DNA of 64,000 nt, from assembly GCA_963798975.1 (NCBI GenBank), contig CAWCVU010000006.1, forward strand, positions 34,682 through 98,681, written 5' to 3'. The position numbers and the translations under genes were made by a program. Source of the DNA: an uncultured Gammaproteobacteria bacterium. GTDB taxonomy: Bacteria > Pseudomonadota > Gammaproteobacteria > JABCZS01. The notes below the pieces were generated by a model. That model worked only from the letters and a program-made list of their open reading frames with translations. It was not told where the DNA came from and did not search any database. Shown one piece after another: positions 4,120 to 58,914 of this stretch; within the stretch, counting starts at the first letter, position 1; every line of letters starts with the position of its first letter.

Positions 4120-5052
4120 ATGAATGCAGACACTTTTGCAGAGCTTAATCATCAATTAGACCTTTTAGAGGCTAATCCTGATTTAAAAGAAAATGAACGT
4201 CATCAAGAATATTATGCCCATAGCAGTGTTCATGGTGGAAATTTGCTCAAAGAACGTGCCTTGATGGTGAGTGCCAGTATTGATGAAGATGCGCCAGAAT
4301 ACGAGACTTTGGTGTTGCCGCTGACAGGTCGCATTGAAACCTTCTTTGCGCATCCTGAACTTGAACTGGATTTTGTCGATGAAGTACGCATGCTCAGGGC
4401 TCGCCGATTGATTGAACAGGGTAAATACACTCAAGCAGATTTAGTCTATACCCATATACCTTATAGCCCTATTTATGCCAAAGCTTTTGAGCAAAGAAAT
4501 CATTATTTTTTAAATGCCGTTAAAAATCATTTACATTTATTAAAAAAATTAAGCCATCCTTCGCATATTAAGCATCAACTGATCAGCGCGCTGCAAGCTT
4601 TATATTATGTGCGCGAATATCCTCATATGGATGATGTAAATGTCTATCAAAATGCTGAAGCTATTTTTGCCCACAATTATTTTACAGAAGCAAAAATGAT
4701 AGTCGCAAAAATTTGCACTGAAGTATTACCAGAAGGATTTCAAAATTTAAATCAAGGTGAAACCCTAATCGTTTATAAAGCCCTAGAAAACTATAAACAT
4801 GATTTATCACAATGGCGCGCCATCGTTAAAACCTTACAAAAACATTTTATTGAATTACTCTTTACCCAGCAACAATTTCAAAAACCAGATGAAAAGCTCT
4901 TACCCCTAGCCCACGCGCTACTGGATGAACCTACATCTACCCTTAGCACTTTGCAACATTTGGTTGGCAAAACACGCCTAGAAAAAGATTTTCTAGCCGC
5001 GATACTTGGCAATCAAAACGCTGTGGATCATTTGCAGCAGTTTTTACGCTAG
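4120..5052 (+). CDS. hypothetical protein (ORFan, helical, no signal peptide)
   Basis: Uninterrupted 310-aa ORF divergent from hisG. I recognise no domain. His/Leu/Gln-rich. Confidence 0.55.
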   Translation: MNADTFAELNHQLDLLEANPDLKENERHQEYYAHSSVHGGNLLKERALMVSASIDEDAPEYETLVLPLTGRIETFFAHPELELDFVDEVRMLRARRLIEQGKYTQADLVYTHIPYSPIYAKAFEQRNHYFLNAVKNHLHLLKKLSHPSHIKHQLISALQALYYVREYPHMDDVNVYQNAEAIFAHNYFTEAKMIVAKICTEVLPEGFQNLNQGETLIVYKALENYKHDLSQWRAIVKTLQKHFIELLFTQQQFQKPDEKLLPLAHALLDEPTSTLSTLQHLVGKTRLEKDFLAAILGNQNAVDHLQQFLR

Positions 5053-5146
5053 ATTATCAAGTTATCAAACTCTTAAATTAAAACATTTGCATTCATTACA
5101 TACATTTAGTAAGATGGCTATGTCAATCATTTTATAAGGTGTTTGA

Positions 5147-8100
5147 ATGTTTATCCAACTCTTGGCGCTTAGCGCAGCGATACACCTAATATTACGTGCA
5201 ACCCGTAGTCAAGCTAACATAGCCCAAAAAAACACCCTGCTTATAGATGACGGTGATTTCACACATGGTGAAGTGGACACCTCCTTGGTCATGGAGTTTA
5301 AGGTGCCCGATTTTCACGGTCACTATCAAACAGAAGCATTTCAAGTCTTTAATGCCCATGCACCTTATAGCGGGCTTATCAACGATCCTGAGCAAGCAGA
5401 AAAAGACTACCAATCCTTAGTTACTCAACAATTAACCCAAGAAAAACAAATCAATCTTTATCAAAATCTTATTTTATTTAAACAAGATGTCATTAAAGGT
5501 AAAGTAGACAAAAATGCAATCACCGGCGATTTATTACTAATAGTCGAGCTTATGGAATCAGCATTCGATCCACAAATCAGTTCCACTCTTCCTATTGAAT
5601 ACGATCAAAATGCCTATTACAAATTCATCAATACACAGCGTTCAGACTATTCACCTTATTTAATTAGTTTTTATAAAAGTATAAACAATCGAGAGCAAAA
5701 TAAGCAGGACCCTACTGATTGGGAACATAAGATATATTTCTCAAATCGACCTTACCTAAAAAAAATAATGGCCGGACAAAGTTTGATTAGTCAAGGCAAC
5801 AAAATACTCAGGTATTTATTGACCAGAACCGCTAAAGAAAGTTACTTCTTAGATCAACATAGCTTTGATCAAATTTATAACAAATACCGAACCCAACAAA
5901 ATAAGATAGCGATGAATGCTATTAAAATAGAATACGGCAAATCGATATTAAGCTGGGAATATATACTCTATATCATGGGCAGAGCCTATACTCAGCTACA
6001 TAAAGAACATAAACAACTACCCACTTTGAAAAACAGCCTCATTGAAACTATCAAAAAATTCAAGAATAAACCCTTTGTTAAAGGTAGTGAAAATTATAAG
6101 ATGGATGGCATTGGCTATGAAGTGATTACACAATGGCTTACTGATCAAGCCAAATTACTATTCAAAGAAACGTACATGGGTCAAACATTCAATATCCCAA
6201 AGGCAGAATCCGGGAATGAAATCATTTTATATGAAAACATGATCAAGACTTCCTCATATGGCATTTTTGAGGAGCAATATATAGGCTTTTATGAGCTCGG
6301 TATATATTTAAAAGAAAATAAAAAAGAATATTTTACTACCAAAGAAATTGCACAGCTCGAATATCAAAAATTATTATTAACGAAGGAAATGACTGAAAAG
6401 TATCAGGTTTTCAAGGAAAAAAAACTTATATTAGAGATAAAACAAGACGATTTTAACCAGGAAATGAGACGTCAAGCTGTAAGTTCGCATGAAATACTAA
6501 AAAACTTATCCGAACGATCACCTGTTGAAACAAAAACCCTAATGATTAGGTACCTGTTAAATGAGTTTAAAAAGAAATCAAATGATGCGGAATTTATAAA
6601 GGAATTAGAAAGTAGTATACTAGCAGAAAGAATATCCGACGAAGAATTAGCTTATCTTGACATTTACTTTATTGCTAAAAAATTAATGCAAGATGATATG
6701 GATTTGCCACATGCCACATTATTTAAATTTGAAGTCATAGAAAATATGAGGCTTCCTAACAATAAGGTAATACAAACTGAAATATATGCATATTCCCCAT
6801 CTGCATTAACCAATGAATATGAAATTTTTAAATCAACCTTGCTCGAACATTTAAAAAATGATTTGTGGTATCAGGCGTATGATTGGATAAATGCACTTCA
6901 AAGATGGAAAGTAAATTTTTACCCAGCATTACTTGTATTATTTGTTGCAACGTTTTACCTAAATCGACTTAATCAAAACAGAGGGCGAAACCAATCGTCA
7001 AAAATCTCAATACATGTTCAACCTGTTAGACCTACTATAAATTTAGAAACAATTGAGCAAGGAAAAGAAACTGAACTAGAGTTTGATGTGAAAATCATCA
7101 CAAGGGCTAGTGAACAAGCTAAACCCCATAAAGATTCAGCAAGAACCGAGCAAAAAAAAGAACCTGAAACTGAACCTGTAGAGAAAATCACAACAATACA
7201 GGATTTATGGGAATTATTTGAAAACTCCTTAGGCATTTACCCAGGTACCAATGAGCAAAGAAAATTGGCGCTTATAGCACTTAGAAAAAGTGAAATAAAA
7301 GGCGATGGGGAAAATGAAGAAAAATTAGAGGCACTCTGGCTCGCACAAGAGCGTGAGCTAAAGCATGATAAATTTATAAAAAAATACGCTGAGCTCTTAT
7401 GGGAAGATTTTGAAACAGCTTTAGATAAAACAAAAACTGCTGGCCATGTAGACGTTTTTAATAAAGTTCTTATAAAAATAAAGAATATTTACCTTGAAAA
7501 ACAACAAAACCTATCATGGCTCACTAAACCGCTACTGCTGCAGCAAGATGATTTTAACAATGAATACCTCGTCCAGCTAAACTACGAATTTAAATCGGTA
7601 CTTAACTTATACTTACCAAAATCAAAAGAAGATAAAAAGGCTTTTAATAAAACTTTGGGATTATTTGCAAATAGTAATTTAGATTGGTATTTACTGCCCA
7701 TGAGTAAAAAAATAGATGAATTTATAATTGCTTATTTAAAACAATTAGAGATTCCAGTATACAACGACACCATGAAGAATAATATTGAGTCTTATAAAGA
7801 ACTTTGCAGACTTAAGGACGAATATAGAAAACGTGAAGCGCTTGCTTTACCTGCTCCTAGTTTTGAAGCTAAACCTGAAAAGAAGGAACAAGATCATAAG
7901 GAGCCAGAAAACAATAACAATAATTTGGAAAAGCACACAGCATTTATTGGCTTGCAAACTAATGAGCAGATTAAAAACCTTGAGCAAAGCGCACAGTCAC
8001 AAGATCATATTCCAGAAGCACCAAAGGTGCCAAGCAATACAAATAACGCAACAGAAAAATTGTTATTAATTAAAAATGAAGGATACCAAGCATTCGCGGA

Positions 8101-8800
8101 TATTATTTATTATCACGTCAATAATGCAATGGTTGATGAGCATATCAAAATGCGCGCCTATAAAATGTTTATTATTATGTATCATAGCCTGCTTGACACA
8201 TCTGAATACAAATTTGAAAAAAGTATTTTAGATGACATTAGGCATGCGCTGGTGCATGACTGGGATGAATTAACAAATAAATTTAAGGGCAATTTGCTTT
8301 TAAATTTAGAAGTCACTTTATTTAATATTACACTACACAATAATAATGGTCTTTTTAAAGTAATGAAATCATTGGCTGATGTAGCAAGCGAGATGGATGA
8401 TGGTTATTTTCAAATGAACCGAGGATTGATCAACAAACACATTGACAATATTTCTGCAATTTCAAAACTCACTTCTCTTCTCATGGCCTATCAAGAAGCT
8501 CAAAATCATCAAAATTCAAATGCTTTGAATATGTATATGGAACAACTGGCTGTTATGGATATTTTGGCTTCAATGGGTGAGGTTTTTCAAAATAGTAATT
8601 TAAAAAATTTACCCGGATTTGAGAATATTAATGATCAAACATTTCGATTGTGTCGCAATATCACTTATCATAATAAAGATGCCAATGCGCTATTGCTGTG
8701 GAATGTACAACAACAGATACCTGAGCTTATAAACGCAGTAAACAGCAACAAGAATATTGCTGCCCCACAACCTCAAAAAATTATGTCTCGAGTCAATTGA
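5147..8800 (+). CDS. large hypothetical protein with C-terminal tandem HEPN(DUF86)-like Rx4H modules
   Basis: Uninterrupted 1217-aa ORF, Lys/Glu/Asn-rich. Hydrophobic N-terminus (MFIQLLALSAAIHLIL) and one central hydrophobic segment (FYPALLVLFVATFYL). Motifs IRHALVHDWDEL (R1032/H1037, nt 8240-8257) and CRNITYHNKDANALLLWNVQQQIPEL (R1170/H1175, nt 8654-8671). Confidence 0.7.
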   Translation: MFIQLLALSAAIHLILRATRSQANIAQKNTLLIDDGDFTHGEVDTSLVMEFKVPDFHGHYQTEAFQVFNAHAPYSGLINDPEQAEKDYQSLVTQQLTQEKQINLYQNLILFKQDVIKGKVDKNAITGDLLLIVELMESAFDPQISSTLPIEYDQNAYYKFINTQRSDYSPYLISFYKSINNREQNKQDPTDWEHKIYFSNRPYLKKIMAGQSLISQGNKILRYLLTRTAKESYFLDQHSFDQIYNKYRTQQNKIAMNAIKIEYGKSILSWEYILYIMGRAYTQLHKEHKQLPTLKNSLIETIKKFKNKPFVKGSENYKMDGIGYEVITQWLTDQAKLLFKETYMGQTFNIPKAESGNEIILYENMIKTSSYGIFEEQYIGFYELGIYLKENKKEYFTTKEIAQLEYQKLLLTKEMTEKYQVFKEKKLILEIKQDDFNQEMRRQAVSSHEILKNLSERSPVETKTLMIRYLLNEFKKKSNDAEFIKELESSILAERISDEELAYLDIYFIAKKLMQDDMDLPHATLFKFEVIENMRLPNNKVIQTEIYAYSPSALTNEYEIFKSTLLEHLKNDLWYQAYDWINALQRWKVNFYPALLVLFVATFYLNRLNQNRGRNQSSKISIHVQPVRPTINLETIEQGKETELEFDVKIITRASEQAKPHKDSARTEQKKEPETEPVEKITTIQDLWELFENSLGIYPGTNEQRKLALIALRKSEIKGDGENEEKLEALWLAQERELKHDKFIKKYAELLWEDFETALDKTKTAGHVDVFNKVLIKIKNIYLEKQQNLSWLTKPLLLQQDDFNNEYLVQLNYEFKSVLNLYLPKSKEDKKAFNKTLGLFANSNLDWYLLPMSKKIDEFIIAYLKQLEIPVYNDTMKNNIESYKELCRLKDEYRKREALALPAPSFEAKPEKKEQDHKEPENNNNNLEKHTAFIGLQTNEQIKNLEQSAQSQDHIPEAPKVPSNTNNATEKLLLIKNEGYQAFADIIYYHVNNAMVDEHIKMRAYKMFIIMYHSLLDTSEYKFEKSILDDIRHALVHDWDELTNKFKGNLLLNLEVTLFNITLHNNNGLFKVMKSLADVASEMDDGYFQMNRGLINKHIDNISAISKLTSLLMAYQEAQNHQNSNALNMYMEQLAVMDILASMGEVFQNSNLKNLPGFENINDQTFRLCRNITYHNKDANALLLWNVQQQIPELINAVNSNKNIAAPQPQKIMSRVN

Positions 8801-8803
8801 AAA

Positions 8804-10216
8804 TTACTTCTTAGGCAGATACAGAATCTGTAATCGTACCTTCAAATATTTCAGTGGCTAGCGCTACGGTTTCCGATAAGGTTGGGTGAGCATGTATCGT
8901 TAACGCAATATCTTCTGCATCACAACCCATCTCTATGGCAAGCCCTACTTCGGCAATTAAATCACCCGCATGTGGTCCGACAATGCTGCGCCTAGGATGC
9001 GATGTGTATCATTATCAAATATTAATTTAGTTAAGCCTTCACTGCGGCCCATGCTTAAGGAGCGACCACTGGCCGCCCAGGGGAAGACACCTTTGCCATA
9101 ATTCAAGTTTTGTGCTTTGGCTTGATCTTCTGTCAAACCGACCCATGCAATTTCCGGGTCTGTGTAAGCACACACTTGGAATGCATTTTGCGTCAAAGAA
9201 ATGATTTTTACCTGCAATGACTTCAGCAGCGATACGGCCTTCTGCTACTGCTTTGTGAGCAAGCATAGGTTGACCAATCACATCGCCAATGGCAAATATA
9301 TGATTTACATTGGTGCGTAATTGTTTATCTGCTTTAATAAAGCCGCGTTCATCTACATTTACCCCTGCTTTGTCGGCAGCAATTTTTTTGCCATTGGGTG
9401 TACGACCTACAGATACTAAAATACGGTCATACCGAACTGGTTCTGTGGGTGCGCCTTCGCCTTCAAAAGTGAATATAAATTCCGTCCGGTTTTGCTTCGG
9501 CATTAATTACTTTCGTTTTTAAGAATATATTTTCATAACGTTTTTTAACGTGTTTGAAGAAGGTTTGATAATGTCTTTATCAAAGCCACCGATTAAACTA
9601 TCACCTAATTCAACCATGCTTATTTTTGAACCTAAAGCATGGTATACCGTTGCCATTTCCATACCAATAATACCGCCGCCAATGACTAACATTTTTTCGG
9701 GGATGTCATTTAATTCTAAGGCGCCAGTGGAATCTATAATACGTGGATCAGTTGGTAAATTAGGTAATTTAACGGGTTGTGAGCCTACAGCAATAATTGC
9801 GTTTTCGAAATTAATGGTTTGCGTTTTGCCTTCAAACGTAACCGTGACTTCGTTTGGACCTGAGAATACAGCTTCACCTTGAACAACAGTTACATTGCGT
9901 TGTTTAGCTAAGGTTTTTAACCAACGGTTAAACGATTAACTACGCTTGTTTTCCAATCTAAAATTTTTGCAGGATCTGAATTGCGTGAACCATAATTTAC
10001 ACCGTGGGTAGATAATTCATCCACTTCGTCGATTACTTTTGCAACATGTAATAAAGCTTTTGAGGGTATGCAACCTACATTTAAACAAACGCCACCTAGA
10101 GTAGGAAAACGTTCAACCAACACAACTTTTTTACCTAAATCAGCTGCACGAAATGCGGCTGTATATCCACCAGGGCCGCTACCTAATACGATGACTTCTG
10201 TTTGTAAATCTGACAA
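8804..10216 (-). pseudogene. lpdA: dihydrolipoamide dehydrogenase (E3), full length but multiply frameshifted
   Basis: N-terminal piece 9917..10216 ([30 protein letters not shown] redox disulfide). Pieces 9039..9503 and 8957..9217 lie in other frames. The conserved tail [38 protein letters not shown], read by me in a third frame, runs to the stop at 8804. Confidence 0.85.
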
Positions 10217-10227
10217 GAGAAAACTCC

Positions 10228-11759
10228 TTATAATAACATTTGGCGCATATCGCCTAACATTTCACCTAAATACGTAATAAAATGTGCGCCTTGTGCACCA
10301 TCAATCGCGCGGTGATAGTAGGATAAAGACAAAGGCAACATTAATCGGGGCACAAAGATACCGTCTTTATAAACTGGGGCCATACGTGATTTAGACGCAC
10401 CTAAAATAGCTACATCTGGGGCATTGATTATCGGTGTAAAGGCCGTGCCACCGATGCCACCTAAACTGGAAATGGTAAAGCTGCTACCTTGCATCTCTTT
10501 CGGTGTTAAACTTCCTGCGCGGGCTTTTTCGCTGAAAGCCTTTAATTCTTCTGCTAATTCCATAAAACCTTTTAAGTTTACATCACGAATCACAGGGACA
10601 ACTAAACCATTAGGTGTATCAACTGCAACGCCGATATGAAAATATTTTTTCATAATTAATTGCTCGCCATTTGGCGCAAGAGACGCATTAAATGTGGGAA
10701 AGGCTTTGAGCGCAGCAACAGATGCTTTCATTAAAAATACTAAGGGTGTTAATTTTACCCCTTTTTCTTCAAATTTATTTTTGTTTTGCTGGCGAAACTC
10801 TTCTAAATCAGTAATATCAACTTCATCAAATTGGGTAACATGTGGGATGCTGACCCAATTACGATGTAAGAATTTAGCGCTTAATTTTTTAATACGTGAT
10901 AATTCTTGCAATTCTATGGGCCGAATTGTGAAAAATCCACAGTCGGCATAGGCTCTACAGCGAATCCCGCAGCGCCTGATTGTAGGCGATTTTTAATTAC
11001 ATTATTTAAATCATCTTTAGTGACTCGACCCTTTTCACCTGTAGGGGTAATCGTTTTTAAATCTATATTTAATTCACGCGCAAGACGTCGTACGCCTGGA
11101 CTTGCGTAAATGGAATCAGATGAAACAGGTTTTACTTCAGGTGCTGGTGTAGGTTTTGTTTCAGGACCGCTTATAGGTGTGGGTGCAGCTACACTTACAC
11201 TTTCGCTAGTTGTTAAACTACAAATCACTGAATCTTGGGCAACTTTATCACCCACTTTAATAGCGATATCATGAACAACGCCATCTATGGGTGATGGAAT
11301 TTCCATGGAGGCTTTATCGCTTTCTAATACCGCGAGTTTTGATTCTTCTTAATAGACATGCCCACTTGGATGGGAATCTCGATGACATCGACCTTATCAA
11401 AATTACCTATATCTGGCACGCGTATAATTTGTGTGTTTGCGCTAACGCTCGCAGGTGGCGGTGCAGGTGTTGGTGCAGGTGTTGGTGCTGATACAACAGG
11501 CGCGCTTTCTGGCACAGCTTCATTAGACTCTAGCGTTAATATAAAATCACCTTGTTTGATTTTATCGCCAATCTTAACATTGATCGCTTGAACCATGCCT
11601 GCTGCAGGTGATGGCACTTCCATCGAGGCCTTATCACTTTCTAAAGTAATTAAAGCTTGTTCTTTTTTTACCGTATCACCCGGTTTAATTTGAATTTCGA
11701 TGACGGTGACGGCATCGCTATTCCCCTAAATCTGGAACATTCACTGTTACTATGCTCAC
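10228..11759 (-). pseudogene. aceF: dihydrolipoamide acetyltransferase (E2), frameshifted
   Basis: Catalytic domain 10228..10911 ([15 protein letters not shown] = DHRxxDG-type motif). E3-binding plus lipoyl segment 10914..11306. Lipoyl domain 11324..11623. First lipoyl domain from the GTG at 11759 (VSIVTVNVPDLGE, stop, then ...LESDKASMEVPSP). Each piece is in a different frame. Confidence 0.85.
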
Positions 11760-11763
11760 AACG

Positions 11764-14424
11764 CTACTCCCTCGCTGGGTCCGGTTTATTCGGATTAATA
11801 TTAAATTTCTGCATGGCGCTGGTAACAACGCTTGCGGGTAATGACCCCAAATCAACTAAAGCTTTTAAAGCTGTAATTACAATAAAATCGCTATTCACTT
11901 CAAAGAAATAACGTAAACGCTCACGCGTATCACTGCGACCAAAACCATCTGTGCCAAGTGTTACATATTTTCCAGGAACAAAACCGCGAATTTGATCGGC
12001 GTATTCGCGCATATAATCCGTAGCAGCAATCACGGGACCTTGTTTATCTTTTAAACATTGCGTGACATAAGGCACTTGTTGCACGGCTTCTGGGTGCAAA
12101 TTATTTTCCCGCTCAAGATGCAAACCTTCGCGACGCAACTCAGTTAAAACTCGTAACACTCCAAATATCGCTGCTGACTTGATATTCAGTATTTAAAATT
12201 TCTGCAGCCTTGATGACTTCTCGTAAAATGGTGCCTGAACCTAATAATTGCACATGTAAAGATTTTACCGGCTGAACTTTGTAAACAATACATTCCTTTA
12301 ATAATGCCTTCTTCAGCATCTTCTGGCATCGCAGGATGTTCATAATTTTCATTCATCACAGTAATATAATAAAATACATTTTCTTTTTTCTCATACATAC
12401 GTTTTATACCATCTTGAATAATCACGGCTAATTCATAAGCAAAAGTAGGATCATAAGCTACACAATTAGGAATGGTGCTGCCAATAATATGACTGTGACC
12501 ATCTTGATGTTGTAATCCTTCCCCGGCTAAGGTGGTGCGTCCTGCAGTTGCCCCTAATAAAAATCCACGTGCCTGCGAATCACCTGCGGCCCAAGCTAAA
12601 TCCCCAATTCGTTGAAAACCAAACATGGAATAAAAAATATAAAAAGGAATCATGGTAAGGTTATAAGTACTGTAAGACGTTGCTGCGGCAATCCAGGAAC
12701 AAAAAGCACCGGCTTCATTGATGCCTTCTTCTAAAATTTGTCCATCTTTTGCTTCGCGATAATACATCACTTGTCATGATCGACAGGCTCATAGAGTTGC
12801 CCTACAGGGAATAGATCCCAATTGACGAAATAAACCTTCCATACCAAAGGTTCGAGCTTCATCGGGAACAATAGGCACAATGCATTGTTCCTAAATGCTT
12901 TATCTTTAAATAAGATCGTTAACAATCGCACAAAAGCCATGGTTGTAGAAATTTCGCGCTCACCGGTCCTTTTAATATGGCTTCAAATACAGAAAGGTTA
13001 GGAATAGGTAAGGTTTCATCCGCTTCATACGTCGTGAAGGTAAATAGCCACCCGAGTTTTTCGCGTTTTGCTTTCAAATATTGAATTTCTGGGCTGTTTT
13101 CATGCGGGTTTATAAAAAGGGAAATTAGCAATTTTTTCTTCCGGCATGGGAATATTAAAACGTCTTGAAATTCCTTTAATGCTTCAACATTCATTTTCTT
13201 GCGTTATGGGTAATATTAAGTGCTTCACCCGCGGCTCCCATGCCATAACCTTTAACCGTTTTTGCTAAAATGACCGTAGGTTGGCCCTTATGTTAACGGC
13301 GGCATGATAGGCTGCATAAACTTTTTGCACATCGTGTCCTCCACGATATAAATGCCAAATTTCTTCATCGGTTAAATCCGCCACCATTTCTTTTAATTCA
13401 GGATATTTACCAAAAAAATGTTCTCGAGTATAAGCGCCATCCTCGTGCTTTATAATTTTGATAATCGCCATCGACGGCTTCATCCATCCGTTTCAGCAAT
13501 AGCCCGTTTTATCTTTAGCCAATAAAGCGATCCCACGTCCACCCCAGATCACTTTAATGACATTCCAGCCGGCGCCCGAAAAAGAGATTCAAATTCTTGA
13601 ATGATTTTACCATTGCCACGCACCGGACCATCTAATCGTTGTAAATTACAATTGACCACAAAAATTAAATTATCGAGTTTTTCACGTGCCGCAATGATTA
13701 AGGCCCCAGTGGATTCTGGCTCATCCATTTCACCATCACCACAAAAACACCATACTTTGCGATCTGGGTATTTATCAATCGCGTGCTTCTAAATATTTCA
13801 TAAAACGGGCTTGATAAATAGCTTGTATGGGCCCTAGTCCCATGGAAACCGTTGGAAATTGCCAATAATCAGGCATTAGCCAAGGATGGGGATAGGATGA
13901 TAAACCATCTGTTTCGACTTCTTGACGAAAATGATTGAGTTGTTCTTCGGTAAGTCATCCCTTCTAAGAAACGAGCGTGCATAAATGCCTGGTGAACTAT
14001 GCCCTTGAATATAAAGTAAATCACCGCCATGGGTCGCCGTTTGGGCATGGAAAAAATGATTAAAACCCACTTCATATAAATTAGCGGCTGAAGCATAAGA
14101 GGCAATATGCCCGCCTAATTCTGGGGCTTTATATCCGGCACGCAAGACCATCGCAACGGCATTCCAGCGAATAATGGCATCTAAGCGCTTTTCAAGCGCT
14201 TTATTGCCCGGGTAGACAGGTTGTTGTTCTACAGGAATCGTATTGATATAAGAGGTATTAAACCCATCAGGGAGCGTGATACCTAGCTGCTGTGCTTGTT
14301 TTTGTAACTGAGTTAACAAAAATTGTGCACGAGCAGCGCCTTCACGCTCGATAACTTCCTCTAATGCTTCTAACCATTCCTCGGTTTGCAAAGGATCATT
14401 GTCAAATAACTCACTTCCAGCCAT
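11764..14424 (-). pseudogene. aceE: pyruvate dehydrogenase E1 component, full length (about 887 codons) but heavily frameshifted
   Basis: Seven track ORFs in all three minus frames (13876..14424, 13869..14105, 13265..13483, 12919..13194, 12186..12770, 12140..12352, 11764..12159). Together they read as an AceE-type E1. Gaps between them hold no ORF of 60 aa or more. Confidence 0.85.
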
Positions 14425-16002: not shown

Positions 16003-17288
16003 ATGAAGCCCACTTTTGTTTTTTATTCTAGTTTGTGTACTTTATTATTAGCCTTTCCTGTATACGCGATACCCACCGACGGTATTGAAGAAAATGACGA
16101 ACTCGATCAAGAGATGGATTTTCCTGATGAACCTTACTACCCGCCTGAAGAGGAAGAAGACGATAAACCTTTGCCTTTAAGTGAACGCATGGGTTATAAC
16201 GACGGATTTTATATTCGTAATGCCGACAACACTTTTTCATTATTCTTTAACGGCTTATTACAAGTCCGTTATATTTATTCGCACGCTGACAGTGTACCCG
16301 ATACTGAAAATACTGATTATTATCGATTCGAGCTGCGCCGTACTGATTTATATTTTTCAGGTCATTTTCTTGATGAGTCTTGGACTTATGTCTTGGGCAC
16401 AGAAGCAGGTCCCGATGGTACCTTTGCGGTCGACGATGTTTATATTGCTAAAGCATTTACTGAAAATACTTGGGCACAAGCCGGACAATTTTCAACACCC
16501 TTTTTACGTGAAACTTTAATTTCAAGCACACGCCAACTTGCCGTTGAGCGATCATTGGTTTCAAAGTTTTTCTCAACCAATAATTCAACAGGACTTTTAT
16601 TTGGTACCGAAGATGATGAATTCAAATGGGAAATCGCCTTTACCAATGGTTATTTTGCGCATGATTCCTACCCGGATGAAACAAACGAAAACGAAGACGT
16701 TGTCAATCATGATTTTCAAAATGGTCAAAGTTATTCAGCCATTACCCGTTTAGAATTTATACCATTGGGTGAATGGGAAGAATTCCGTGGTTTTAATTCT
16801 TTTGGTGAAAATAATTTGGGCTTACTCATCGGTGTCGCAGCGGCTTATCAACGCGATAATGATAATGCAGATATTGAAGAAATGTCAGGAACAGTGGATA
16901 TCACTTTCCAAGGTGGTGGTTGGAGTACTTTTGCTATGGGCGCCATCACACAAGATCTTCAAAATGATGACAGCGCTTCTTATGGTGCACAACTTCAAGG
17001 CGGTATTTTCGTCGATGAAGATCTCGATACCGTTGAATTATTCTCACGTTATGAATGGGGTCAATCCAATACCCATGTAGACTTTATTGAACCAGACCAT
17101 GAAGACCTAAACATATTAACCGCTGGATTTAATTATTATATCTACCCAGACACTTAAAATTAAGTACTGACTTTGGTTACTCCTTTAGCGCTATCGGAGA
17201 AAACTGGGCCAATACCACCGACGGTTGGCGCACCAGCAACGACAGTGGTGAATGGGTTGCACGTTCGCAATTACAATTAGTTATTTAG
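16003..17288 (+). CDS. porin-like outer-membrane protein with acidic/Pro-rich N-terminal extension; 3'-terminal frameshift as assembled
   Basis: The ORF 16003..17157 has a signal peptide and alternating beta-strand character. The conserved last roughly 42 aa (HLKLSTDFGYSFSAIGENWANTTDGWRTSNDSGEWVARSQLQLVI*) continue in another frame to 17288. They match the C-terminus of the downstream paralog. Confidence 0.6.
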
Positions 17289-17291
17289 TAT

Positions 17292-18502
17292 TTTGGTTCA
17301 AATACACGATTGCAGCGAGTTTACTTTTTTGCGCTTGCACGGCAACTGCAGAGAGTACTAACAATCTCAGCAAAAATGAGGCGATGGATTTTCCAGATGA
17401 ATCCATCCGGCTCCTGCTGAAAGCGAACATCAATTACCTGCAAACCAATTCTATGGTTATGATGATGGTTTCTATATCCATAATTCAGACAATACATTTT
17501 CCCTAAAATTCAATGGCCTGATTCAGGCACGCTATCTTTATTCAGCAGTAGAAGGGTTAGACGATTATCAACGTTTTGAATTAAGACGGACTAAATTATT
17601 TTTTACAGGACATTTTATTGATGAATCCTGGAATTATGTTTCGGGATGCAAGCAGGTCCCAATGGTACTATTGCCATAGACGAAGCTTATATCGCAAAAG
17701 CATTTACTAAAAATACCTGGACACAAGTGGGGCAATTTAATACAACCTTATTGCGTGAGTTTACCATTTCAAGTTCAAGACAATTGGCAATTGAACAATT
17801 TATCGTTGGGACAATATTATTCTGTAAAAGATACGAATGGTATTTTATTTGGTACAGAACAAGGTCCTATCAAATGGACACTTTCTGCTAATAATGGTTA
17901 TTTCCAGCCAACGGAAGATGAAAATCAAAATATTGTTGATGAAGAGTTTCAAGATGGCGCCACCTATGCTTTTTTGACACGTTTAGAATATAAACTTTTA
18001 GGTAACTGGCAAGAGTTACGGGATTATAATTCACCCAGCGGCAATGAAAAAGGTTTGCTGTTAGGACTAGGCGCAGGATCAACGTAATAATAATATTCAT
18101 ACCCCGCATCAGGAATTTACTACCGGTACTGCGGACCTCAACGTTCAAGGCAGTGGCTGGAGTACTTTTGCTATGATGGCCGCTAATAAAGATCAACTAG
18201 TGATGATCCCACCGTTTATGGTTCAGTTGCCCAAGCAGGTCTTTTTGTCGACCCGCATCAAGATAAATTTGAATTGTTTTCACGCTATGAATGGGGCAAT
18301 GGCAAGAGTGAAGAAAATTTAAGTTTAGTAACCGCCAGCACCAATTACTATTTAGATCCAAAACATCTCAAGATCTCAGGTGATTTTGGCTATGCATTCC
18401 ACAGGCGTCGCCCCCATTTGGGAAGATGTCATCGATGGTTGGCGCGCAACCCAAGAAACCGGCCAATGGGTAGTGCGAACACAACTACAAGTCGTACTTT
18501 AA
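17292..18502 (+). pseudogene. paralog of the upstream porin-like gene, multiply frameshifted
   Basis: Pieces 17252..17506, 17646..17891, 17755..18087 and 18274..18522 in different frames align to the 16003 gene (MDFPDE, GYDDGFYI.N.DNTFSL.FNGL.Q.RY, ELRRT.L.F.GHF.DESW.YV, AYIAKAFT.NTW.Q.GQF). The tail GVAPIWEDVIDGWRATQETGQWVVRTQLQVVL* was read by me. The start coordinate is approximate. Confidence 0.7.
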
Positions 18503-19672
18503 TCGCGCCGCAATTTATCTGATATGGCTATCGGCGTTGGATATTTCATGACAATAACATAAGATGAAACAATAAATGTTATTATTGCCGTGGTTTCAAT
18601 TAAGTAATACATTGGGGTGCTAATAACACTATGCTCATGTGCGACATAAGCAATCAAGAGCGAGAAACTCACTGACCTGCCCTAAACGTACACCAATTTC
18701 TAACGATTGATTTTTAATTTCTTTGATACGCTTAAGTAACAATGAAAACACTAAAGGCTTGAGTAATAACATTAAGATCGCTAATACCGCTGCAAGGAAA
18801 TATCATTCATCGCCGACCATATGCAAACTAAAATCCTGCGCCTAATGAAAAGAAAAATAATACTAAGAAAAAATCCCTTAAAGGTTTTAAGCTTTCAAAA
18901 TAAATAATGCTATGGGCCCGCTGGCTATCGCAACGCCCGCTATAAATGCACCGATTTCATGGGATAAATGCATGCTGTGCGCAAGTTCAGCTATAGCCAA
19001 ACACCAACCGATTGCAATTAAAAATATAAACTCTTGAATTTTATCAAAACGAGAAATTAATTTTGTTAAAATATAACGTTCGAAAAAATAACAAAATGCA
19101 CTTAATAGTGGCAAGGCGATGACCATTTGTATAATTTCCCAAACGTTTAAGCCAGGGCCACCTGCCGCATTAATTAATAACATAACTGCAATCGCAATTA
19201 AATCTTGGAGTAATAAAATACTGATGACAATTTCACCGGTATGTTGATGATGAAGCACTGTTGTAGGTAATAATTTTAGACCAATAATAGTACTTGAAAA
19301 CATCATAGAGGCTGCAACGACTAATGATTCAGTGGTAGAAAAGCCAAAAAATGTTGCAATGCCAAAACCAACTAAGCAAAAATCAGATGAACTAATCAAA
19401 ATACATCCCATTCGTGCTTTTTAACAAACGAATTAAATCTTTAGATCCAGATTTAAACCTAATAGAAATAATAAGAAAATAATTCCAATATCGGAGATAT
19501 GAGAAATTAAAGCGGGATCATCGACCCATTGTAAGCCCCAAGGACCTATGATAACACCCAGTGCCATATAGGCGACAATTAAAGATTGGCGGGTATATAA
19601 GGCCAGCGTCGCAAGAATAGACGCACCGGTAAAAATAAGAAAAATATAAAAAATGACTGGAGTCGTGTCCAT
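18499..19672 (-). pseudogene. CPA2-family cation:proton antiporter (Kef/YbaL-like membrane domain), frameshifted
   Basis: N-terminal piece 19433..19672, then piece 18887..19411. The remainder (LKPLRDFFLVLFFFSLGAGF ... IGVRLGQVSEFSLLIAYVA ... KYPTPIAISDKLRRD*) is readable only by switching frames. Confidence 0.7.
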
Positions 19673-19960
19673 ATACCCTTACCCAAATGAAAAATTAAAT
19701 ATCCCAGATATTTAACTTAAAGTCAAAATAATTATAAATATACTAAATTTATACCTATTACACTTGAACATGCGAACTCCGTCATTGCGAGCGAAGCGAG
19801 AACAAATGTTCGCATCTTGAAATAGAACGGGTATAGAATCTCGTACATAGTTATTCCACTTGCATTTTATTTCTAGCCATGTTATTATGCGCCGATGACT
19901 GAGCTTAACCTTCATTCATTAGTATAAACTTTTTGATTTAACTAACTAGAGAGGTATCCC

Positions 19961-20426
19961 ATGCACCAAGTTCCTTTATTGCAAACTCAAGATAACGTAA
20001 ATAACACAGATTGTACAAAAGAAAACCGAAAAAGAAACAATCATTGTTATAGGCATTGCTACGACAGCAGGCGGATCAACGCTTCTATGGTTAGGTTCAT
20101 GGCTAGGTCAGTATTTAGCGAATCAGGATAGTTCAGACAAGCCAAGCGCAGCTGACCCATCTAGGACTTATGCTGATATATATCAGAAGGCTTCTGATGA
20201 TTTCGAGAAAGCAGCCCAAGTGGGTACGCTTATTTTTCTTAGTTCGGCAGTTCTTTATGGTGTGGGTAAAGCGATTCAAAATCCCGCTGCGGTGAAACGT
20301 ACAATGGCTAATGCTTGGGAATACATTAAGTATCCATTCGTCTCCAAACAAGCTAATCAGGTTAATCAGGCTAATATTAATGACGCTGAGCATGGTTATA
20401 ACAATACAGCAACCGCGTCTAAGTAA
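19961..20426 (+). CDS. small hypothetical membrane protein, possibly frameshifted in an A-rich tract near the 5' end
   Basis: ATG at 19961 preceded by GAGAGG. That frame stops after about 50 codons. The frame of track ORF 20220..20426 is open back to about 20001 (KKTEKETIIVIGIATTAGGSTLLWLGSWLG...). A frame switch would fall in acaaaagaaaaccgaaaaag. Confidence 0.35.
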
Positions 20427-20537
20427 TAGTCCTGCAATATCCGGCATCTAGGGTGCCGGATAAAGTAAATACAATTTAAGCAAATAGACTATTCTTCAGA
20501 AGCCTTTGCCGCTATTGTTATACTGCATCTTTCTTCG

Positions 20538-20878
20538 TCAATTTTTCTGAATACGTGCAGATTTACCGGCACGATCACGTAAATAATATAATTTTGCACT
20601 GCGCACATCACCGGTTTTTTCACAGTAACACTGTGTATCATACGACTATGCGTTTGAAAAGTCCGCTCAACACCTTCACCGTAAGAAATTTTACGAACAA
20701 TAAAAGATGAATTCAAACCACGGTTACGTTTTGCGATGACAACACCTTCGAAGGCTTGCAAACGTTCGCGACTGGCTTCAATTACGCGAACCTGTACCAC
20801 AACGGTATCACCGGGTGAGAAATTGGGAATATCCGTTCTCATTTGTTCACGTTCGATTTTATCAATAATATTACTCAT
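20538..20878 (-). CDS. rplS: 50S ribosomal protein L19; 1-nt frameshift in an A6 run as assembled
   Basis: N-terminal 88 aa are typical L19 ([34 protein letters not shown]). After GTGAAAAAACC (minus-strand A-run = plus 20615..20620) the conserved tail [24 protein letters not shown] is in the +1 frame and ends at 20538. The track ORF instead runs to 20489. Confidence 0.85.
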
Positions 20879-20893
20879 TTACTTAAAACTCCC

Positions 20894-21666
20894 TTACTCT
20901 TCGTTAAAATTACTCGGATTCTTTTCATAGGCATGAATAAATTCACGCAATAAAATTTGTTGCTCTGGGTCCATGCGCATGTTTTTAAGTAAACTCGGTT
21001 TACGTAACCACGTTCTACCCAAAGCTTGTTGCAAACGCCATTTACGTACGCTGTCATGATTGCCACTGGCCAATACACTCGGCACACGTTGTCCTTCAAA
21101 AATCTCTGGCCGCGTTATAATGCGGATGATCTAATAATGAATCGCTAAATGAATCTTCTCAGGGCCGATTGCTCAGAATGAAGAGCGCCTGGCAATAAAC
21201 GTATCACCGCATCCATAATCACCATCGCAGCTAATTCGCCGCCACTTAACACATAATCCCCTATCGAAATTTCTTCATCGACATATTGCGTGACTATACG
21301 CTCATCGATGCCTTCATAACGGCCAGCAATTAATATCAATTGCCCGCAGGTGGTTAATTCACGTACTTTAGATTGTGTTAAAGAAGATCCTTGTGGACTT
21401 AAATACACAACCTTCGATGGCTCTAAAGTACTCGCATCTTGCGCGGCAAAAATAGCATCACGCAAAGGCTCTGGTTTCATCACCATTCCAGGACCACCAC
21501 CGTAAGACTTATCATCTACAGTGTGATGTTTATCTTCTGCAAAATCACGAGGATTCCAATAATTCACCATCGCTAAACGATTACGAACTGCTCGACCGGT
21601 AATACCCACGTCGGTCACCGCAGTAAACATTTCAGGAAACAAGGTAATGATATCAAAGCGCAACAT
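20894..21666 (-). CDS. trmD: tRNA (guanine37-N1)-methyltransferase; two frameshifts as assembled
   Basis: ORF 21145..21666 is the N-terminal TrmD ([26 protein letters not shown]). The middle segment [16 protein letters not shown] lies in a second frame. [38 protein letters not shown] lies in a third frame (ORF 20894..21085). The shifts are near 21155-21162 and 21105-21113. Confidence 0.85.
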
Positions 21667-21667
21667 A

Positions 21668-22162
21668 TTAAAACTCCGGATCCCAATCCACGATTATGAC
21701 TTTATCTGATAAATCAACGTGTTTAACCACTTGCTGTGGCAGGTATGGAATAAACCGCTCTTTATCACCCTTGACCACTAATACATCATTAGCAGCCGTT
21801 GCAAACAGATAAGCGACCTTGCCTAAACTCACACCCTCTAGTGTTTTAACTTCTAGTCCTTCTAATTCAGTCCAGTAATATTGTCCCTTTGGTAATTTTG
21901 GTAATTGCTCCCTATTTACTTCTATCCGTGCGCCTATCAGTGCACGGGCCGTTTCCATACTTTCATAAGCCTTAAACTGAACTACTAAGCATTTTGAGTG
22001 CACTTCACTCGCAACCCAGGTTAATAGTTCAGGCGGCTGGCCTTTTATTTTAACCAGCCAGGGTTGGTAATTTAAAAGATTCTCTCGCGGCTGCGTATAA
22101 GAATCTACTTTTAACCAACCATTAACACCGAATAAACCGGTAATTCGCCCAACTTCAATCAT
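21668..22162 (-). CDS. rimM: 16S rRNA processing protein RimM
   Basis: 164-aa ORF ([18 protein letters not shown]-barrel C-terminus) in the canonical rpsP-rimM-trmD-rplS order. Confidence 0.9.
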
Positions 22163-42315: not shown

Positions 42316-42597
42316 TTACGCAAAACCCACAAAACCCTTTCCATGCGGGTGGCCGGAGGTTGCTTTTATGCGCGCAGCCTGCGAGCACATAAAAACAACC
42401 GCAGGACAGGCCCTGCATGGACGGATCTAACGTTTTGCGTAAACAATTTAAACCAACAACGCACAAAACCCTTTCCATGCGGGTGGCCGGAGGTTGCTTT
42501 TATGCGCGCAGCCTGCGAGCACATAAAAACAACCGCAGGACAGGCCCTGCATGGACGGATCTAACGTTTTGCGTAAACAATTTAAGCCAACAACGCA
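42316..42597. repeat. two head-to-tail copies (134-bp period) of a 127-bp MITE-like hairpin element
   Basis: Copy 1 spans 42316..42442 and is bounded by TTACGCAAAAC / GTTTTGCGTAA inverted repeats. It has an internal imperfect palindrome (gcttttatgcgcgcagc/ctgcgagcacataaaaac). About 110 bp (42341.. versus 42475..) is identical between the copies by eye. Confidence 0.8.
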
Positions 42598-43226
42598 CAA
42601 ATCTGCCGCTGTATCATATCCGCATCCCCCACCCCAGAAATCGTATGAAACTCTGGCACATGACTTCCCACTAAACTTTGATAATACAAAACCAAAGCCT
42701 GGGTCTGATCACGATAAACTTGTAAACGTTTACGTATCGTCTGCTCCTGATCATCTTCTCTTTGAACCAAATCATCCCCAGTCTCATCATCTTTGTCCGC
42801 AACCTTAGGCGGATTAAAATCCGTATGATAAATGCGACCTGAAGCTAAATGAATCCGTCGTCCACTTAAACGATGAATAATTTCTTCATCGGACACTTGA
42901 ATTTCTATCACTTGATCAATAGTCACTGCATTGTCTTGCAAAGCTTGCGCTTGGGCTATCGTTCGCGGAAAACCATCAAATATAAATCCTTTCATACAAT
43001 CTGCTTGATGGATCCGATCCACGGCTAATCCAATAATGACCTCATCAGGAACAAGATGCCCAGCATCCATAAATGATTTAGCTTTTTGCCCCAAGGGACT
43101 TTGCGCTTGCACCGCCGCACGCAACATATCACCTGTTGCAATTTTAGGTATACCCAAAGCTTGCGATAATAAACTCGCCTGAGTACCCTTACCCACACCC
43201 GGGGCACCTAATAATATAATACGCAT
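42582..43226 (-). CDS. adk: adenylate kinase
   Basis: 214 aa, [18 protein letters not shown]-loop, LID region. Confidence 0.95.
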
Positions 43227-57711: not shown

Positions 57712-58914
57712 TTAAAGATAGGGATTACTGATCGTATTGCCATATAAGCAAACATAGGCTCTTTCACTTTCGCAATCAACAGTAAAAGCATCCATACGTG
57801 GATTAGTTTGTTCTGTGTGCTCATCACGTCCTAAGACTAATATTCTACCTTGTAAACCCGCAGTAGCTCTACCGTCCTCAAACTCAAATGCACCTGTTGA
57901 CAAGACATTACCTGCAATAAACGAACCCGCTGACTGCTCAGTAGCGCCTCTCACTATCCAATAGACACGGTCTGCTTGTGCACCGTTGCGCAATAAGATG
58001 TTAGCATTTTCAAAGATGTAAAACACTTGTTTTAAATGATCAGCACTACCATAGTCAATGATAAATACATAATCGCCATCACCATTTAGAATAAAATCAC
58101 CGTTGATAGTCACGGGTGAAGGATCTCTGAAACAAAAAACACCAGCAGAAACTTGAGGAACCAAACCCTTATGACCTAAGGATGGACTTAGTGTATTATT
58201 ATTATGGCAACCACCATCATACTGTTTATTTAGCATCGCATAAAATGTAGCTTCAGTATCTTCATTAGCAGCAATGGTCAGCTCTTCAAACGGCCCATAC
58301 AATCTATGCTGATCATAATAGCGAATAAGTTGCGTACCAAAACCATGCTCATCGGTATAGCCTACATTAAAAGCTACTGTTGCATCTTGACTTGCAGTAT
58401 TAAAAACACTAGGTGCCAATACTGAAAAATCTTCTGCAGCACCTAAAGTAGTAATATTGAGATCAATTTCTGAATAAAAATCACGAGCCCAAGTATTGAT
58501 GTCTATTTCTAAAGTACGATCAATTTGTGTCCATTCTCTTACAGGGCAATCAATAGATGTCGTGTTAAGTTCAAGAACAATACTACATTCATAACCGATA
58601 GCCTTACCAATTTGGCAAGTACTTCTTTCTTTAGAATAAGTCACTAAATCTTTATCCGGAAAACTATCAAGATGATTTGGTGAAATTTCAACATCTAATA
58701 AAGTAATACCAGGATCTCTATTATTAACGACGCGATATGTTAATGGCTTGGCTTCTGCTCCGCATGCAGCTTTGTGGACATTAGGCGCAAAAATACAAAC
58801 ATCTGCCTCTTCATTACATTCATTATGGACTGATTCAGCATGTGCAACACCTACTAAAAAAATAGAGGTAGATAAACTGAGTAGAGCCAATTTTAGATTA
58901 TATGTTTTAAGCAT
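57712..58914 (-). CDS. secreted two-module protein, family member A (Ig-like N-module + DUF3494/ice-binding-like C-module)
   Basis: 400 aa with signal peptide MLKTYNLKLALLSLSTSIFLVGVAHA. LGAAEDFSVLA ... VSAGVFCF ... DRVYWIVRGATEQSAGSFIAGNVLSTG ... LQGRILVLG match my memory of the DUF3494 pattern. Confidence 0.65.
   Translation of the reverse strand: MLKTYNLKLALLSLSTSIFLVGVAHAESVHNECNEEADVCIFAPNVHKAACGAEAKPLTYRVVNNRDPGITLLDVEISPNHLDSFPDKDLVTYSKERSTCQIGKAIGYECSIVLELNTTSIDCPVREWTQIDRTLEIDINTWARDFYSEIDLNITTLGAAEDFSVLAPSVFNTASQDATVAFNVGYTDEHGFGTQLIRYYDQHRLYGPFEELTIAANEDTEATFYAMLNKQYDGGCHNNNTLSPSLGHKGLVPQVSAGVFCFRDPSPVTINGDFILNGDGDYVFIIDYGSADHLKQVFYIFENANILLRNGAQADRVYWIVRGATEQSAGSFIAGNVLSTGAFEFEDGRATAGLQGRILVLGRDEHTEQTNPRMDAFTVDCESERAYVCLYGNTISNPYL

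Follow-up and report, generated by a model that had tools for sequence, protein, structure and literature searches.

A lineage-restricted membrane protein of an uncultured gammaproteobacterium with a plausible, divergent HEPN-like C-terminal module

RESULTS

A 1217-aa membrane protein with two Rx4H motifs

Analysis of a 64-kb window (the whole stretch of DNA under study, 64,000 nucleotides) from an uncultured gammaproteobacterium revealed a gene for a lineage-restricted membrane protein of 1217 aa (P0001; positions 5147 to 8800, plus strand, as are all features below), identified from the list of open reading frames and their translations. Its C-terminal module is a plausible, unproven, divergent and membrane-anchored HEPN-like one. 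A membrane-tethered RNase with a HEPN-like C-terminal domain is the best explanation we can offer, and we hold it tentatively, at somewhat less than even confidence; the support for HEPN is weak but specific. The peptides that first drew attention to this region, ...SILDDIRHALVHDWDEL (R1032/H1037) and ...FRLCRNITYHNKDANALLLWNVQQQIPELINAV (R1170/H1175), were recovered exactly as quoted and numbered in the preliminary description.

The open reading frame starts with ATG, and a Shine-Dalgarno-like AAGGTG can be read in the sequence at positions 5136 to 5141, with the ATG 5 nt further on. The gene also occurs in two independent assemblies (L055 and L056), where it is 99.9% identical and differs by 3 synonymous and 2 nonsynonymous changes. 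That it might not be a real gene was ruled out: three independent assemblies have it intact, and a colinear homologue exists. The protein is rich in lysine (9.5%), glutamate (8.7%), asparagine (8.0%), and leucine (11.4%), and this amino acid composition accounts for the low overall GC content of the gene (33%). Recent horizontal import was ruled out by its GC3 of 0.297, against 0.28 to 0.32 in housekeeping genes. The genome from which the window comes is Legionellales-like, its hisG being 79 to 83% identical to those of Legionellales and gammaproteobacterial MAGs.

A single distant relative

An exhaustive search of 1.84 billion protein representatives returned a sole relative, a protein of 1158 aa (P0003), which bears out the earlier view of P0001 as an ORFan; the family is so far known from two lineages of uncultured bacteria only. 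The two proteins share an architecture of N-terminal hydrophobic segment, central transmembrane (TM) segment, and C-terminal domain. Identity over the C-terminal domain is 27%, and significant pairwise similarity is confined to this region (BLASTP E = 1e-11); the similarity of the ~560-aa N-terminal region is marginal, with one block at E = 0.008. Because it is the only part clearly conserved between both members, the C-terminal domain of ~230 aa is likely to be the functional core of the protein.

Word-seeded protein searches recovered only the query itself when the full protein was used, missed even P0003 when given the two-sequence alignment, and gave zero matches with the C-terminal alignment; such searches are insensitive for this protein owing to the limit of 8000 candidates and to its low-complexity words. 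Scans of genome collections, metagenomes, and viruses found no new family member (one metagenome match, L046, was rejected as such since its DNA is identical to that of L045), and similarity of P0001 to any named protein was not detected. At its own locus, P0003 lies among ORFans with sub-threshold leucine-rich repeat (LRR) and Lcl_C matches and adjoins a protein with an OTT_1508 deaminase domain.

Predicted membrane topology

The hydrophobic N terminus and single central TM-like segment of the preliminary description are both present. The former (aa 1 to 19; positions 5147 to 5203; Kyte-Doolittle 19-residue mean [KD19] of 1.67) is followed by a conserved TRxQA, in which T19, R20, Q22, and A23 are invariant in P0003; it is probably a Sec-type signal peptide or signal anchor and may be cleaved. 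The central TM segment spans aa 587 to 605 (positions 6905 to 6961; KD19 of 1.40, and 2.63 for its counterpart in P0003), and a basic cluster follows it in both proteins (NRLNQNRGRNQSSK and KLSERSIKKIEKK, respectively). Between them lies the region of ~560 aa (positions 5216 to 6904), which has no recognized domain (no match in Pfam, NCBIfam, or PDB) and which the positive-inside rule places outside the cytoplasm. Beyond the TM segment, a presumably cytoplasmic spacer of ~350 aa (positions 6974 to 8041) includes the conserved block DLWE.FE and, at aa ~900 to 965, a low-complexity linker; it gives only sub-threshold noise in Pfam. Taken at face value, these features would make the gene product a bitopic membrane protein.

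Two motif-bearing units in the C-terminal domain

Unit 1 of the C-terminal domain (aa 975 to 1075; positions 8069 to 8371) holds the block best conserved with P0003 (RAYK..II..HSL...L.DIR....H.W) and the first Rx4H motif, R1032-H-A-L-V-H1037, followed by D and W (positions 8240 to 8257). Profile alignment makes unit 2 (aa 1086 to 1205; positions 8402 to 8761) a candidate divergent HepT/DUF86-like HEPN unit, and it holds the second motif, R1170-N-I-T-Y-H1175 (positions 8654 to 8671). The motifs and their contexts read RHALVHDW and RNITYHNK in P0001 and RNRFCHKW and RATGYHSD in P0003, so that R1032, H1037, R1170, and H1175 are all invariant, limited evidence in a family comparison that rests on two sequences. 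Also invariant are E1145 and IPEL (aa 1191 to 1194; positions 8717 to 8728), both of which align to HepT hallmark positions, the latter to the "lP.L" in the final helix of HepT. The aromatic residue at H+2 of the HepT Rx4HxY pattern occurs in unit 1 only (unit 2 has K in P0001 and D in P0003); of the two units, unit 1 is the closer match to R-[NH]-x3-H-x-aromatic.

No other Rx4H motif occurs anywhere in the protein; the two conform to R[NHDQ]x3H and lie within its last 243 aa. The probability of at least two such motifs in shuffled sequence is ~0.001 for the last 243 aa and 0.009 for the whole protein, in a test picked post hoc with the data already seen. What did not survive is the idea of two copies of one helical unit: no similarity between the halves could be detected (BLASTP E = 0.7; hhalign probability, 0.16%), and the motif alone is what they have in common.

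Comparison with HepT/DUF86 profiles and structures

A HepT/DUF86 profile was built from eight PF01934 proteins, Pfam-verified at 54 to 99 bits, whose genes had been retrieved from plasmids and phages with a DUF86 consensus bait (the same bait gave zero matches in the PDB). In both P0001 and P0003, the best domains of this profile fall on the motif regions. With filters off, it gives the C-terminal fragments 8.8 and 7.9 bits, values that partly re-measure the motif which prompted the hypothesis. Each score was reached by 3/3000 shuffles and by 0/984 and 1/984 natural 250-aa fragments, among which the two rank 1st and 3rd (p ~0.001); one unrelated natural fragment, a piece of aceF from L003, reaches the score of P0003.

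The HepT/DUF86 likeness proposed in the preliminary description was partly supported: unit 2, the copy said to track the DUF86 consensus closely, aligns along the whole HepT model, and unit 1 over the motif block only. With hmmsearch (filters off), aa 1097 to 1200 of unit 2 map in the right order to positions 7 to 112 of the 117 in the HepT model, and hmmalign retains the G and E of "IGE," the RN..H, the W, and the "P.L." By hhalign, 74 columns of unit 2 are in the correct register at a probability of 1.4%; the hhalign probabilities against HepT range from 1 to 3% (P = 0.013 to 0.036). Unit 1 aligns over 12 to 35 residues, corresponding to the RN..aHgY block.

Curated HEPN-family profiles, to which the preliminary description would have assigned the C terminus, gave no match. 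PF01934 was not reported at E ≤ 10 for either protein or its C-terminal fragment, neither protein matched HEPN-clan models of Pfam, NCBIfam, PADLOC, or PHROGs at the same cutoff, and no HepT match was found by sequence and profile searches of the PDB. Other matches were dismissed as noise: DUF7650 (Pfam) in P0003 (E = 0.0012, below threshold), which genuine HepT proteins do not match; PDC-M70A (PADLOC) in P0001 (E = 0.0038), which neither P0003 nor genuine HepT proteins match; and sub-threshold hits to HTH_NOL4_2nd, WVELL, pqiC, and globins. AlphaFold models from the single sequence and from the two-sequence alignment are all-helical and of low confidence (pLDDT of 38 and 49, reaching 57 to 74 in parts of unit 2), so the helical character of the units rests on low-confidence models, and a Foldseek search of the PDB with these poor models gave a best match of E = 0.31, with no HEPN structure among the matches.

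A possible membrane-tethered RNase

From the N to the C terminus, the protein may comprise a Sec-type signal or anchor, a domain of ~560 aa exposed outside the cytoplasm, a single TM helix, a cytoplasmic spacer of ~350 aa, and the C-terminal domain of ~230 aa. Motif 2 would then sit in a very divergent HepT/DUF86-like HEPN unit; the helical unit around motif 1 would be shorter and carry a HepT-like R[HN]xxxHxW block. Mechanistically, the protein would most likely be a metal-independent, membrane-tethered RNase whose active site is assembled from Rx4H motifs brought together, either within one chain as an intramolecular composite site (compare Cas13) or across a dimer (compare HepT, Ire1, and RNase L). 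The large N-terminal domain could restrain the RNase or switch it on, and the protein might serve in toxicity, defense, or stress response. An active HEPN RNase of this kind would give the superfamily a new architecture, with two Rx4H units ending a large single-pass membrane protein on its cytoplasmic side and with antitoxin, CRISPR, and kinase partners all absent; it would couple the cleavage of RNA to what happens at the bacterial envelope, or at host membranes if translocated, and would illustrate how HEPN domains can diverge until curated profiles no longer detect them.

Among known systems, HepT/DUF86 proteins (PF01934; toxins of type VII HepT-MntA) share with the C-terminal region the R-[NH]-x3-H motifs, an all-helical character predicted at low confidence, the apparent colinearity of unit 2, and the R-x4-H-x-aromatic of unit 1. 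However, the match lies far below the family threshold, an adjacent MNT/MntA gene is missing, and HepT is a free-standing protein of ~120 aa, whereas here the region forms the end of a membrane protein of 1217 aa, each chain of which has two units with a motif. Cas13, the type VI CRISPR effector, likewise has two Rx4H motifs per polypeptide, which could in P0001 also form one composite RNase site, but the locus has neither a CRISPR array nor a Cas context, and there is no sequence similarity. In Cas13 the HEPN domains are split by large lobes; in P0001 the units are adjacent and small, the protein is membrane-anchored, and the second HEPN-type unit is putative.

Membrane anchorage of HEPN RNases has precedents in Ire1, which is activated by oligomerization, and in the predicted C6orf70 family (PMC3710099). 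Ire1 and RNase L (KEN-type HEPN) and the C6orf70 family offer the plan of a far-side sensor, a single TM segment, and a cytoplasmic HEPN RNase that the topology predicted for P0001 would resemble. These families are eukaryotic, though, with no detectable homology to P0001, and no kinase or pseudokinase domain was found before the C-terminal domain (Pfam Pkinase and Ribonuc_2-5A not matched). It is a long shot that P0001 is a bacterial counterpart of Ire1, a single-pass receptor whose large extracytoplasmic domain detects a signal from the envelope or from infection and triggers a cytoplasmic tandem-HEPN RNase through Rx4H juxtaposition; if it were, it would define a new family of stress or defense proteins of intracellular bacteria, coupled to the membrane and cleaving RNA. 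Csx28, a type VI-B accessory protein with a TM helix and a divergent HEPN that forms a membrane pore, would resemble P0001 in joining a divergent HEPN-like domain to a membrane protein of bacteria (bioRxiv 10.1101/2021.11.02.466367). By contrast, it is small and associated with Cas13b, a gene missing at our locus, and acts as a pore rather than as an RNase.

Alternative explanations

The C-terminal domain may instead be helical and unrelated to HEPN, its Arg and His residues being structural or engaged in binding (of lipid, protein, or nucleotide, for example), which would make P0001 a nonenzymatic envelope or scaffold protein and an ordinary lineage-specific ORFan of a host-associated bacterium. 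We regard this as a serious contender, although on balance doubtful. The lack of any match among curated profiles, PDB sequences, and folds of HEPN families speaks for it, as do hhalign probabilities of 1 to 3%, the absence of an internal repeat, and the aceF piece that reaches the score of P0003, by which scores of this size do arise by chance at about 1 in 1000. It sits uneasily, however, with the invariance of the protein's only two Rx4H motifs in a relative of 27% identity, with the HepT profile picking the same region in both proteins, and with the colinearity of unit 2 with the full HepT model, hallmark residues kept. A narrower alternative, which we consider improbable, is that unit 2 alone is HEPN, acting as a homodimer like HepT or as a noncatalytic ligand binder (as proposed for sacsin-type HEPN), and that unit 1 is an unrelated helical subdomain whose Rx4H has another role. 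The mutual dissimilarity of the units and the contrast between a full-model alignment for unit 2 and 12 to 35 residues around the motif for unit 1 would fit, and a single-TM, receptor-like architecture would be compatible with dimers. Yet the unit 1 block is the best conserved in the whole protein and comes closer than unit 2 to the Rx4HxY pattern of HepT.

A further alternative concerns the site of action and overlaps the others: P0001 could be a Dot/Icm (type IVB) effector acting on host membranes in a eukaryotic cell, with or without RNase activity, rather than a resident bacterial membrane protein. This seems unlikely to us, though well worth considering. The Dot/Icm effectors of Legionella for which a HEPN or HEPN-like domain has been predicted (Lpg2073 of L. 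pneumophila [PMC11696984] and the nucleotidyltransferase-associated domain of DrrA/SidM) are comparable in their Legionellales genome, lineage-specific large protein, and variable locus. A Legionellales-like genome, a large Lys/Asn-rich ORFan, and a variable slot with Ras-family GTPase genes in L001 and L003 would all suit an effector, as would the company of P0003, that of ORFans with sub-threshold LRR/Lcl_C matches beside an OTT_1508 deaminase-domain protein. On the other hand, a Sec-like N-terminal signal is atypical of these effectors, and together with the TM segment it points to the bacterium's own membrane; the housekeeping-level GC3 bears no sign of recent acquisition, and no dot/icm gene was found within the 64-kb window. 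The typical Dot/Icm C-terminal signal has a Glu-rich block and small polar residues, but by inspection the last 20 aa of both proteins (NSNKNIAAPQPQKIMSRVN and LKKIFQYSSHNNRKFSCAK) are net basic and contain no Glu-rich block.

Locus and neighboring genes

Upstream of the gene lies a 310-aa ORF (positions 4120 to 5052), a conserved hisG neighbor found at 51 to 73% identity beside hisG in L001 to L005. All five of these relatives carry the 310-aa ORF without the 1217-aa gene, and a role for it as cognate antitoxin or partner was therefore ruled out. The 310-aa ORF contains no G[ST]x(8-14)DxD motif, no nucleotidyltransferase match in Pfam, and no match to any family, and the window has no CRISPR array or Rfam CRISPR repeat; the absence of an MNT antitoxin in this neighbor and of a CRISPR context, both asserted in the preliminary description, was therefore upheld by the scans. 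The downstream PDH genes were ruled out as pseudogenes, being intact in L055. The slot occupied by the 1217-aa gene, between the conserved 310-aa ORF and lpdA, is variable among relatives: it is empty in L002, L004, and L005 and is occupied in L001 and L003 by genes for Ras-family GTPases (E = 1e-21 and 1e-25). The product of one of these GTPase genes has, as judged by eye, an ankyrin-like C-terminal stretch.

The 1217-aa protein and its one distant relative

The 1217-aa ORF (5147..8800, + strand) opens with an ATG that has AAGGTG 5 nt upstream, and the gene is 99.9% identical at the same locus in two independent Logan assemblies (L055 and L056), with 3 synonymous and 2 nonsynonymous differences in the gene. 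As the ORF is colinear with its homologue and of identical length in L055, its sequence is trustworthy. GC content is 33% in the gene versus 39% in the window; GC3 (0.297) is at the level of housekeeping genes, and recent import was therefore ruled out.

The preliminary description of this DNA placed two tandem copies of a DUF86-type HEPN module, each ending in an Rx4H motif, at the C-terminus of the protein. The quoted peptides and numbering of both motifs, R1032-HALV-H1037 and R1170-NITY-H1175, proved exact, and the hydrophobic N-terminus (aa 1-19) and central TM-like segment (aa 587-605) it reported are also present. The protein has no Rx4H motif besides these two, which fall within its last 243 residues and have a polar residue directly after the Arg. 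A shuffling test, picked after the data had been seen, produced at least two such motifs with a frequency of about 0.1% for this C-terminal stretch and 0.9% for the whole protein. The description of the two halves as copies of one unit was not borne out, as they have no detectable similarity to each other (BLASTP E 0.7; hhalign probability 0.16%).

A word-seeded protein search with the 1217-aa protein returned the query alone. When aa 966-1217 were compared exhaustively with 1.84 billion representatives by phmmer, one relative emerged, P0003 (1158 aa, E 3.9e-4); additional searches of proteins, metagenomes, viral contigs, plasmids, and phages brought no new member. The contig carrying P0003 (L045, identical to L046) comes from a different sample, and the gene lies at a different locus, near dnaE and lpxB, among ORFans. 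Its flanks encode a 626-aa protein with an OTT_1508-like deaminase domain (L045 7967-9847; above the cutoff at 30.6 bits) and a partial DUF1016 N-terminal domain of 60 aa (L045 13480-13662), a setting that may point to a conflict system or mobile element. The 1217-aa protein and P0003 are organised alike: a hydrophobic N-terminal segment with a conserved TRxQA after it, a central TM (strong in P0003) with a basic cluster after it, a 'DLWE.FE' block, and the C-terminal domain. Significant similarity is confined to this last domain (27% identity, E 1e-11), in which R1032, H1037, R1170, H1175, E1145, and IPEL (1191-1194) are all invariant.

Test of HEPN membership

Neither protein was reported by the HEPN-clan Pfam models at E<=10 or by the HEPN families of NCBIfam, PADLOC, and PHROGs, and PDB sequence and profile searches gave no HepT match. 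Because HMMER's filters hide very weak matches, we tested membership directly with a HepT profile made from eight real proteins encoded on plasmids and phage contigs, all verified as PF01934 (E 1e-14 to 1e-28). With filters off, the best domains for this profile in the 1217-aa protein and in P0003 fell on the two motif regions, and aa 1097-1200 of the window protein aligned to positions 7-112 of the 117-position model. The C-terminal fragments scored 8.8 and 7.9 bits, each reached by 3 of 3000 shuffles; among 984 natural 250-aa fragments drawn from all the DNA analysed, none reached 8.8 bits and one reached 7.9, and the two C-termini ranked first and third. In the hmmalign alignment, unit 2 of the window protein (aa 1086-1205, around R1170/H1175) retains two residues of 'IGE', the G and the E, as well as RN...H, the W, and 'P.L'. 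Profile-profile comparison recovered the correct register at a probability of just 1-3% (P 0.013-0.036), in agreement with a column-shuffle null in which 2/81 and 2/115 reached the real score. AlphaFold models of the domain were all-helical but unreliable (pLDDT 38 and 49), and Foldseek with these low-confidence models gave no meaningful match.

At the sequence level, these results show a weak, specific HepT-like signal in the C-terminal domain (p about 0.001-0.03), which is strongest in unit 2 and, in unit 1 (aa 975-1075), restricted to the motif. HepT/DUF86 is the closest family by sequence; the 1217-aa protein falls below the family's profile threshold and lacks an MNT partner, the antitoxin of HepT.

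A variable slot between hisG and lpdA

The gene lies between hisC/D/G and lpdA-aceF-aceE. Five MAGs labelled Legionellales or Gammaproteobacteria (L001-L005) encode a HisG with 79-83% identity to that of the window; in them, hisG is followed by a conserved ORF of 310 aa (51-73% identical), then by a variable slot, and then by lpdA. This slot, occupied in the window by the 1217-aa gene, is empty in L002, L004, and L005 and holds Ras-family small GTPase genes (Pfam E 1e-21 and 1e-25) in L001 (6816-8839) and L003 (7888-8709). One encoded protein is 509 aa long, with a C-terminal stretch that is ankyrin-like by eye, and the other 273 aa; the L001 slot also contains a PIN-domain gene. No tblastn trace of the 1217-aa gene was found in L001-L005. 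In this lineage, the slot seems to be a hotspot for eukaryote-like genes of the effector type.

The last ~30 residues of the 310-aa ORF occur a second time in L001 (7217-7306; tblastn E 1.5e-5), immediately downstream of the Ras-like gene, and this copy may be the footprint of an insertion in which the neighbouring gene's 3' end was duplicated.

Possible function and alternatives

The hydrophobic N-terminus, the one TM, and the basic clusters that follow it lead us to infer an extracytoplasmic position for the first ~560 aa and a cytoplasmic one for the last ~600 aa, which would make the conserved C-terminal domain a membrane-tethered module in the cytoplasm. For a HEPN-like module, knowledge of the superfamily predicts a metal-independent RNase (PMC3710099). 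Its active site would require that two Rx4H motifs be juxtaposed, whether in a single chain, as Cas13 does, or between the subunits of a dimer, as HepT and Ire1 do. The N-terminal domain is the obvious candidate for regulation or sensing. We put forward the 1217-aa protein, tentatively, as a candidate membrane-tethered HEPN-like RNase with a regulatory N-terminal domain. Two motifs in one chain recall the logic of Cas13, although its CRISPR array is absent here, and a TM-anchored HEPN recalls that of Ire1 and C6orf70, although the kinase domain that is their defining partner is absent. Among bacterial membrane proteins, Csx28 has a divergent HEPN domain, but this is a small protein associated with Cas13b.

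There is a substantial chance that the C-terminal domain is instead helical and non-HEPN, a reading to be weighed between the silent HEPN-family models and the HepT-like signal; should the HEPN reading fail, the protein would be an ordinary lineage-specific ORFan. With the signal in unit 1 limited to its motif, a single HEPN unit, or a non-catalytic one, is conceivable, but we consider it improbable. Site of action is a separate matter that overlaps these readings: the protein could be a Dot/Icm effector acting in a host cell. A Legionellales background and the Ras-GTPase genes that relatives carry in this slot fit that idea, but an N-terminus that is Sec-like and a C-terminal tail that is basic and free of Glu fit it poorly, and we regard it as rather unlikely. 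For the favoured membrane-tethered RNase, conservation of the motifs is intriguing and the hypothesis directly testable, in a family of two members.

Assembly indels and other features of the window

Frameshifts break lpdA, aceF, aceE, trmD, and rplS in the window, with at least 8 across the first three genes (affected stretches, 8826-14391 and about 17250-21700); trmD and rplS each run on in another frame with the canonical C-terminal sequence. Since lpdA (470 aa) and aceF are intact in L055, which shows 7 gaps relative to the window over 11 kb, we attribute the breaks at 8.8-22 kb to assembly indels and reject pseudogenes. Several short ORFs at 17252-18522 look like fragments of the 384-aa ORF beside them (16003-17157), for example AGPNGTIAIDEAYIAKAFTKNTW versus AGPDGTFAVDDVYIAKAFTENTW; this region is a tandem paralogue of that ORF, which has either decayed or been disrupted by these assembly indels. 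The interval that separates a TonB-dependent receptor gene from the following ORF contains, at 42324-42601, 2.1 copies of a 134-bp unit at 98% identity, G+C-rich and partly palindromic by eye. A 400-aa ORF at 57712-58914 carries an ice-binding-like domain (Pfam PF11999, E 3e-12).
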